A DNA stretch of 16,424 nucleotides, taken from the UHGV virus genome UHGV-0409449; one strand, 5' to 3'. Positions 4,393-5,070 of this stretch are shown here, in pieces. Source of the stretch: a virus. Below the pieces are notes generated by a model, which was not told the DNA's origin, made no database searches, and was given only the letters and a program-made list of their open reading frames with translations. Position 1 is the first letter of the stretch. Each line of letters opens with the position of its first letter. A program made the position numbers and the translations under genes.

Positions 4393-5070
4393 ATGAATAA
4401 CATGACAACGAAAGAGCTTTTGACGGCACTTCCAAAATACAAAAGCCATAAAACAGTTCGTGCCTCAAAAATCAAAGATATCGAAATTATCGCCCTAATG
4501 GATGTGGTCCTTCTTTGCAACATCGAAGTCGTTGAGCCAGAAGGGGTAAAAGTCCATGTTGATAAAATGTTTTTGCAAAAACACCGACCAGAAATTGGCG
4601 GATATCTGGTCGCTTATGAGGACGGATCTCTGTCCTATTCACCAGAAAAAACATTTGAAGAAGGCTTTAGTCGGACTAACGACTTCTTCGAAAATGGGGC
4701 ATTGCTCAGCATTGAAGGTCACAATGGGGTGACATTCATTACAGCCAGGGACGTAACTATTTCTGCTGGCGGTATCGCTACTCTACAAGAAGAAATCGAC
4801 CTTGAAGCAGCCGACTTTTCTGACGCGCTGATGTGGCTGAAGGATGGCAAGAAAGTTGCTCGACGCGGGTGGAACGGCGAAAACCAATTCTGCTGGCTGG
4901 TTCCTGAAGGACAGTACCCGGCACGAATGGAAGCCATTAAGGGATATTTCCCCGGCGACCTCGTTCCGTATGGTGCTTATTTCGCCTTAAAAAATGCACA
5001 AGGTGTAGTTGTTCCGTGGGTTCCTTCTGTAGGCGACTTACTGGCATGTGACTGGTTTGTAGTGGAGTGA
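4393..5070 (+). CDS. Two-domain cargo protein: unknown N-terminal domain plus C-terminal DUF2829 (Tad2-like) domain
   Basis: ATG at 4393 with GAGGAAAG upstream, 225 aa. The ORF-track GTG at 4225 adds a basic low-complexity extension and is judged non-coding. The C-terminal ~80 aa (ALMWLKDGKKVARRGWNGENQFCWLV...PWVPSVGDLLACDWFVVE) match the DUF2829 signature as I remember it (GKKV.R.GW ... PW..S..D.LA.DW). Confidence 0.65.
   Translation: MNNMTTKELLTALPKYKSHKTVRASKIKDIEIIALMDVVLLCNIEVVEPEGVKVHVDKMFLQKHRPEIGGYLVAYEDGSLSYSPEKTFEEGFSRTNDFFENGALLSIEGHNGVTFITARDVTISAGGIATLQEEIDLEAADFSDALMWLKDGKKVARRGWNGENQFCWLVPEGQYPARMEAIKGYFPGDLVPYGAYFALKNAQGVVVPWVPSVGDLLACDWFVVE

Follow-up and report, generated by a model that had tools for sequence, protein, structure and literature searches.

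Gene call and setting of the 225-residue protein

The window analysed here, the whole 16,424-nucleotide stretch of virus genome UHGV-0409449, is a P1-type (Punavirus) element in which the genes follow the order portal, pro, holin, lysozyme, ssb, a gene for a protein of 225 amino acids (aa), an isaA homologue, the minus-strand darA operon and a cin-type resolvase. The 225-aa gene is the subject of this analysis. Its product combines two modules: a C-terminal domain of the Tad2 family, one of the reported families of sponges for nucleotide immune signals, and an N-terminal region homologous, by sequence profile and structural model, to the decoration protein Dec of phage L. The reading favoured here, with a probability of roughly 0.6, is that the protein is an early-expressed sponge of the Tad2 type equipped with an accessory N-terminal module. 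The positions of the relevant features are collected in Table 1.

The reading frame is intact (ATG at 4393, stop codon at 5068-5070), and a ribosome-binding site, GAGGAAAG, lies at 4382-4389, 4-11 nt 5' of the ATG. A longer frame of 281 aa, opening at a GTG at 4225, is improbable as the true gene, because RefSeq/PGAP and homologues in other genomic contexts use the ATG. The upstream GTG, which reads through the shared leader (window 4225-4392), is the annotated start of SJ46 gp048 (281 aa; L002 3526-4371), and the equivalent GTG is the RefSeq start of P1 isaA (320 aa; L001 3526-4488). Since PGAP annotations and distant homologues point to the ATG, both starts look mis-annotated on sequence comparison, the real start being the ATG equivalent to window 4393.

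Table 1. Features of the window, with position, strand and basis of assignment
Feature	Position	Strand	Basis
C1 repressor operator (counterpart of P1 Ossb/Op21), 5' of ssb	3671..3687	+	ATTGCTCTAATTAATTT; 1 mismatch to the searched pattern; sole match in the window
ssb, single-strand DNA-binding protein, opening the predicted early unit	3707..4195	+	PF00436 SSB, E 7e-40; collinear with P1 ssb
Conserved leader between ssb and the 225-aa gene, 197 bp, containing the ribosome-binding site	4196..4392	+	Near-identical to the P1 leader 5' of isaA
Gene for the two-module protein (Dec-like OB, spike-like linker, Tad2 domain)	4393..5070, including stop	+	phrog_872 over full length; RefSeq name 'DUF2829 domain-containing protein'
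OB-fold domain, residues 10-97, homologue of the phage L Dec N-terminal domain	4420..4683	+	AlphaFold2 pLDDT 82-93; Foldseek match to 6E3C
Beta-rich linker, residues 98-137, corresponding to the trimeric spike of Dec (Dec 99-134) in position and length	4684..4803	+	Inside the profile-Dec alignment; pLDDT <50
Tad2-family (DUF2829) domain, residues 138-225	4804..5067	+	PF11195, E 1.6e-22; ModTad2 9EIB, 46% identity, TM 0.74-0.86
isaA homologue, 262 aa, directly downstream	5077..5865	+	phrog_2326, E 6e-151
hxr, with ddrB the promoter-distal (3') end of the convergent darA operon	5895..6206	-	Collinear with P1 hxr
ddrB, darA operon	6196..9183	-	PF18763 ddrB-ParB, E 2e-39; collinear with P1 ddrB
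darA, DarA_N protein (hdf), lydB, lydA	9561-12837	-	Part of the darA antirestriction operon, beyond ddrB

The leader, the ribosome-binding site and the ATG align between the window and P1, after which the P1 frame continues straight into isaA, so that P1 lacks the 225-aa gene at an exact junction. A sequence-only reading of this DNA had placed the gene between ssb and the convergent Dar operon, as is borne out by ssb upstream and the darA operon downstream, but had given the corresponding P1 order as isaB-IS1-isaA; P1 actually carries ssb-isaA-IS1-isaB-hxr. Its suggestion of a variable accessory locus agrees with a comparison across P1-like genomes: the gene is absent from P1, present in SJ46 and vB_EcoM-Ro157c2YLVW and split by an insertion sequence (IS) in RCS47, and in other P1-like plasmids the slot holds isaA and an open reading frame (ORF) of 364 aa. 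At the sequence level, the assignment of the ssb-hxr interval as a variable accessory slot is thus supported. The 364-aa ORF lies between isaA and hxr (L007 3985-5079; L008 3979-5073), where P1 has IS1 and isaB (201 aa; L001 4583-6089) and the window has neither. Pfam yields no model for the slot neighbours, NCBIfam none for the 225-aa protein, IsaA, IsaB, Hxr or the 364-aa protein, and the isaA homologue is without a match in Pfam, NCBIfam or PDB.

Among 5,426 complete E. coli genomes the leader occurs in 334 and the gene in 213, nearly always on plasmids of 90-110 kb, which places the gene in ~64% of the P1-type elements. A DefenseFinder survey lists 'Tad2 AcrIIA7' in P1 (56%) and D6 (93%) phage-plasmids (10.1101/2025.09.12.675607). 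Gene family and elements are those considered here; the passages of the survey that were consulted give presence only and do not cover domain architecture, locus or the N-terminal module. Given this 2025 survey and the RefSeq DUF2829 annotation, Tad2 in P1 and D6 phage-plasmids is already known and is not new here.

Transcription was approached through signals around ssb. The pattern used to search for C1 operators was a consensus of the C1 operator. The operator found sits where P1 has its annotated C1-controlled Ossb, overlapping the ssb promoters. A scan of 3550-6300 returned neither a sigma-70-like promoter nor a plus-strand terminator, and the P1 record has no promoter annotated between ssb and the position of the downstream gene. 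When the -22 box of P1 late promoters was sought, the known LPlyz site came up; the remaining matches were at chance level, and none lay on the plus strand upstream of the 225-aa gene. Because the gene lies directly 3' of ssb, behind the C1 operator, with no promoter or terminator found between the two, it is predicted to be read early, with ssb, as a C1-controlled transcript. A regulatory RNA in the leader was also considered and was dropped because the whole window has no Rfam match and the RNA fold of 4196-4400 is not significant (z -0.99).

The C-terminal Tad2 domain

The sequence-only reading had recognised a DUF2829 signature in the C-terminal ~80 residues, and both of its parts, GKKVARRGW and PWVPSVGDLLACDW, are present. 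Residues 141-224 match PF11195 (Tad2-like, formerly DUF2829) over profile positions 2-73 of 73 with 80.3 bits, far above the gathering score of 25. Sequence matches in PDB comprise ModTad2 (9EIB, 6e-20), Tad2 (8V3E), HgmTad2/AcrIIA7 (8KBI) and the SPO1 Tad2 (8SME), so that every solved Tad2 protein is matched significantly. The structural prediction points the same way: in an AlphaFold2 monomer model built on 40 homologues, the domain reaches a predicted local distance difference test score (pLDDT) of 78-94, with residues 140-225 confident, and superposes on 9EIB, 8V3E, 8SMF and 8KBJ with a Foldseek probability of 1.0 and template modelling (TM) scores, relative to the target, of 0.61-0.86. 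The modelled domain contains the Tad2 fold, an N-terminal helix and then a beta-sheet of antiparallel strands with helical loops. A fold search of BFVD returned Tad2-like proteins alone and added nothing for the N-terminal domain.

As in the experimental structures (9EIB, 8V3E, 8SME, 8KBI), helix alpha1 and the antiparallel sheet are accompanied by an insertion between beta2 and beta3, and the C-terminal 88 residues are 46% identical to ModTad2. The insertion, which makes a second pocket in ModTad2, is of about equal length in the window protein; in P1-like populations this loop comes in at least three alternative forms. Sequence and predicted fold both identify the C-terminal domain as a bona fide member of the Tad2 family. 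It is not, as had also been anticipated, a minimal one: unlike the stand-alone Tad2 proteins of ~90 aa, it is preceded by a Dec-like module of 137 aa.

The ligand-contact residues of the family, W-N...W..S..D, are kept. The main contacts of SPO1 Tad2 with glycocyclic ADP-ribose (gcADPR) are W25, N26, W73, S76 and D79 (10.1101/2023.05.01.538930), which align to W160, N161, W209, S212 and D215; an alignment of 40 family members shows no variation at W160, W209, S212 and D215. Tad2 homologues variously bind 3' cyclic ADP-ribose (3'cADPR), histidine-ADP-ribose (His-ADPR, the ligand of ModTad2), N7-cADPR, cyclic UMP or cyclic CMP (cUMP/cCMP), or cyclic dinucleotides (10.1101/2025.08.24.671296).

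The same domain has a second history, as DUF2829 was first reported as the anti-CRISPR AcrIIA7, 8KBI and 9KZR are deposited as such, and DefenseFinder labels the family 'Tad2 AcrIIA7'. That the window domain acts against CRISPR-Cas, or has a non-immune role such as metabolic nucleotide binding, is nevertheless barely plausible. In the Tad2 study it is pointed out that binding of AcrIIA7 to Cas9 was never demonstrated, and the family is argued to be anti-Thoeris; the residues that contact signals derived from ADP-ribose are conserved here. The E. coli hosts of P1-like elements are not known to possess type II CRISPR-Cas.

The N-terminal module and its relatives

No Pfam model covers the OB region (residues 10-97). 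In the AlphaFold2 model, this region matches the nuclear magnetic resonance structure of Dec (6E3C) in Foldseek with E 1e-3, a probability of 1.0, 28% identity across 83 aligned columns and a root-mean-square deviation of 2.7 A. Profile comparison finds the same relative, with E 8.9e-7 for the whole family and 5.6e-7 for the N-terminal parts alone, collinear over ~110 residues. The N-terminal ~135 aa, which the sequence-only reading could not place, are therefore assigned as homologous to Dec on both profile and model. Dec comprises 134 aa, an OB-fold (1-98) and a C-terminal spike (99-134), the latter being a trimeric beta-helix that capsid binding requires, unfolded in monomers, slow to trimerise and templated by the capsid (PMC6449081, PMC11398494). 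The window protein has the same arrangement of an OB-fold and a beta-rich segment of equal length and order, and the two proteins share a P-E-x-G-G-Y-L...F-E-x-x-Y motif. The pLDDT of the linker is below 50 in the monomer model, and other family members have unrelated linkers or none; the stretch TARDVTISAGG resembles TARTITLTGAV of Dec by eye but needs an alignment shift of 8 columns, which makes the likeness weak. An identity of the N-terminal domain with Lockin was rejected: Lockin assembles into cog-like hexamers and does not occur in INPHARED phages, whereas the OB domain is found in 35 INPHARED records.

The OB domain is widespread. A search with its profile over 1.84 billion representatives (clusters at 50% identity) retrieved 5,874 with E <= 1e-3, of which 3,170 reach E <= 1e-10. 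The majority are 85-200 aa long and have the domain at the N-terminus. Fusion partners were counted among the 134 best representatives of <=500 aa. The OB domain there precedes PF21825 (Sequestin) in 17 of the 134, Tad2 in 10, PF13876 (Acb4) in 4, the Acb2/Tad1 hairpin (PF24729) in 3 and RyR in 1; beyond these five sponge families, Pfam partners amount to two single weak matches. In spot checks, the order of an N-terminal OB and a C-terminal sponge was recovered above gathering scores. Of the 134, 40 (~30%) are stand-alone OB proteins shorter than 125 aa. Sequestin, Acb4, Tad2, Acb2 and Tad1 are all reported sponges, and an RyR-related Thoeris inhibitor was recently shown to sequester signals of the cADPR type (10.1101/2025.07.12.664507; 10.64898/2026.06.04.730250). 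Within the literature that could be searched, no paper connects this OB domain with sponges. Giant proteins of 1.8-4.6 kaa (P0121-P0124, P0128, P0131) ranked highest in this search, matching the profile 11-28 times each but only at positions ~60-85 (GGYxVxYxDGY motif); these look like YD/RHS-type repeats and were set aside as repeat-motif matches.

OB-Tad2 proteins recur in several settings. On an N4-like contig a short one adjoins the virion RNA polymerase, within a hotspot of anti-signalling genes described before (10.64898/2026.06.04.730250). In D6-like elements the gene follows c1-cre beside a DNA methyltransferase or dut and is itself followed by an isaA-like gene, and in the Klebsiella phage SopranoGao it lies in the early region. 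In the D6-like plasmids the isaA homologue stands directly 3' of OB-Tad2 (L009 3267-4043; L010 5659-6513), with 48% identity and at a different genome position from that in the window; by gene order, this suggests that the two genes form a module, or that isaA is a second accessory or anti-defence gene.

The modules themselves appear to be exchanged. P1-like phages contain two linker alleles, and each of the six possible pairings of linker type with Tad2 loop type is found. By contrast, IDLEAADFSDALMWLKEGK at the junction (residues 135-156, window 4795-4860) is nearly invariant despite differing N-terminal domains, linkers, Tad2 loops and a C-terminal Sequestin. Modular recombination is indicated, because this junction hardly varies while the modules combine freely; the junction could be the joint at which modules recombine, or a tetramerisation helix under constraint. 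Three further variants were observed. A D6-type deletion allele of 146 aa (L009 2820-3260) lacks the OB core but retains its initial 20 aa, followed by the spike-like linker and Tad2; a 135-aa allele (P0090) keeps OB and linker and has lost Tad2 by an in-frame deletion; and P0056 is a dUTPase-Tad2 fusion matching the adjacent dut and DUF2829 genes of D6-like plasmids.

Homology to a decoration protein raises the question of whether the window protein decorates capsids, the OB domain binding a P1-type capsid, the linker forming a trimeric spike and the Tad2-like domain being displayed on the virion surface, for instance for adhesion or stabilisation, instead of working as a sponge inside the cell. 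Full-length Dec, OB and spike included, is homologous to and collinear with the N-terminal ~125 residues; in length and position the linker corresponds to the Dec spike, and it is disordered in the monomer model, as that spike is in monomers; and a C-terminal His tag on Dec is tolerated in capsid-binding assays (PMC6449081). A stand-alone homologue, the 91-aa gp05 of Ralstonia phage GP4 (L004 3986-4261), is moreover encoded between the portal and major head genes, beside a CsrA-like regulator. The GP4 capsid at 3.7 A, however, contains the major capsid protein and an Ig-like (immunoglobulin-like) cement protein only, and no OB protein (PMC9698820). The capsid-contact residues of Dec, K30, Y31, Y49, Y71 and E73 (PMC6449081), correspond to E31, I32, H55, D77 and S79 and are not kept, a weak test since the capsid would differ.

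H19, K20, K26, H64, Y75, D77, Y79, S81 and S83 are each conserved in >80% of the OB family, across very different phages, and this polar set is missing from Dec, while the window protein retains all of it except Y79 (S in this allele, which also has F at Y92). Since the set is shared by phages with unrelated capsids and absent from Dec, a common ligand or partner fits better than diverse capsids. Unlike Dec, furthermore, the window protein has a Tad2 domain appended where Dec ends, and its gene belongs to the predicted early unit of ssb and not to the late head genes, with no late-promoter box. The P1 virion proteome is without a decoration protein, though P1 is also without the gene (PMC9024508); the natural D6-type allele described above dispenses with the OB core and keeps Tad2; and the sponges to which the OB domain is fused act inside the cell. 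A decoration role for the module is probably to be dismissed, and the full virion-surface arrangement is highly unlikely.

A second explanation makes the OB domain active in counter-defence in its own right, either by binding signals itself, which would make it a new sponge family, or by masking the phage trigger of signalling defences, so that the protein would neutralise two signals or two steps, like Acb4-Tad2 or Acb4-Sequestin. OB-folds often bind nucleotides or sugars, and the >80% conserved His, Lys, Tyr, Asp and Ser residues are what would be expected of a phosphate or nucleotide pocket. The position N-terminal to five sponge families, the ~30% of sampled members that stand alone, and the guilt-by-fusion logic already used for Sequestin (10.1101/2025.07.12.664507) argue in the same direction. 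The architecture also resembles the multi-sponge fusions (Acb4-Tad2 of Pasteurella phage Pm86, Tad2-Sequestin, Acb4-Sequestin of Ab09 gp59) in that Tad2 is linked to another small phage domain, and in that the OB domain, like the partners there, recurs before several sponge families and also stands alone. Unlike in those fusions, both halves of which are experimentally validated sponges, the role of the OB half is here inferred only. The sole characterised homologue, Dec, binds capsids; an OB domain could equally serve as a solubility, oligomerisation or localisation tag; and the substitutions at Y79 and Y92 in this allele and the bias of the census sample likewise count against this explanation. 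A two-headed sponge is accordingly judged unlikely, less so than capsid decoration.

A proposed sponge and its significance

The favoured explanation remains a Tad2-type sponge with an accessory module. It draws on the identities of the domains, the conservation of the core contact residues, the gene context and the distribution. The gene would serve P1-like phage-plasmids in counter-defence as an accessory gene and probably share a transcript with ssb that starts at C1-repressed early promoters. Its Tad2 domain most likely assembles into the usual tetramer, which would sequester nucleotide-derived signals, for instance the TIR products of Thoeris and possibly cyclic mono- or dinucleotides at the second pocket, with the effectors of signalling defences then staying inactive. 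The N-terminal module, a Dec-type OB with a spike-like linker, would more plausibly be a second binding or scaffolding module than a capsid decoration.

Several observations weigh against this reading. The early timing depends on the absence of detected signals in the interval from ssb to the gene. The canonical assemblies, a trimer for Dec and a tetramer for Tad2, cannot both form in a simple closed oligomer; because trimerisation of Dec is slow and capsid-templated, the N-terminal modules may, as a matter of speculation, stay monomeric around a Tad2 tetramer. In the binding site, the SPO1 residues T78, I63, T65, D67 and H71, which contact the adenine or hold pocket waters, are replaced by G214, L199, N201, Q203 and V207; the corresponding ModTad2 residues are S, L, T, D and A, so that only L199 agrees with the window protein. 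This comparison used the SPO1 residue list alone, the residues of the ModTad2 pockets for His-ADPR and cUMP being published only in figures. Because the adenine-side and water-holding residues differ from SPO1 Tad2 and, except for L199, from ModTad2, the ligand cannot be assigned from sequence, and specificity is not transferable from either protein. The sample of 134 is biased toward relatives of sponge fusions, because the OB profile was built from Tad2-fused proteins. Finally, the large Tad2/sponge screen excluded proteins with PF21825 or a 6E3C-like domain; the OB-Tad2 fusion was thus seen but not studied, because the authors removed carriers of these domains.

The sequence-only reading went further and joined the sponge to the neighbouring capsid-packaged Dar system as two counter-defence layers of one region. 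The ssb unit and the darA operon are separate convergent transcription units, and adjacency does not make them a single counter-defence unit; the former is predicted to be early and the latter is taken to be late. A 121-aa ORF between ddrB and darA (9199-9561, minus strand), which has no Pfam match, lies where ddrA/iddB would be expected in P1. Farther on, the window encodes a cin-type serine recombinase with Resolvase and HTH_7 domains (13313-13870, plus strand) and a 499-aa ORF without a Pfam match (13921-15417, plus strand), presumably the invertible tail-fibre segment of P1-like phages.

Sponge proteins are a main route by which phages pass signalling immunity (Thoeris, CBASS, the cyclic-oligonucleotide-based system, and Pycsar), and P1-like phage-plasmids occur commonly in clinical E. 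coli, Shigella and Salmonella. What is new here is the recurrent Dec-like OB module, an architecture so far ignored, as such fusions were filtered from the one large functional screen. It is a worthwhile, testable lead and not a demonstrated novelty; because the gene is missing from P1 at an exact junction, P1 offers a clean natural experiment and a simple knock-in. At its boldest, the lead would make the Dec-like OB the founding module of a very large unrecognised phage anti-signalling family (at least 5,800 clusters, no Pfam model), acting as sponge or trigger-masker, with the window protein as a two-headed inhibitor and Dec as a capsid-binding offshoot; this is doubtful, if slightly less so than the two-headed sponge taken by itself. 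Should the OB module indeed add binding, localisation or trigger masking, it would define a large new counter-defence family, and Dec, a well-studied decoration protein, would have to be reinterpreted.

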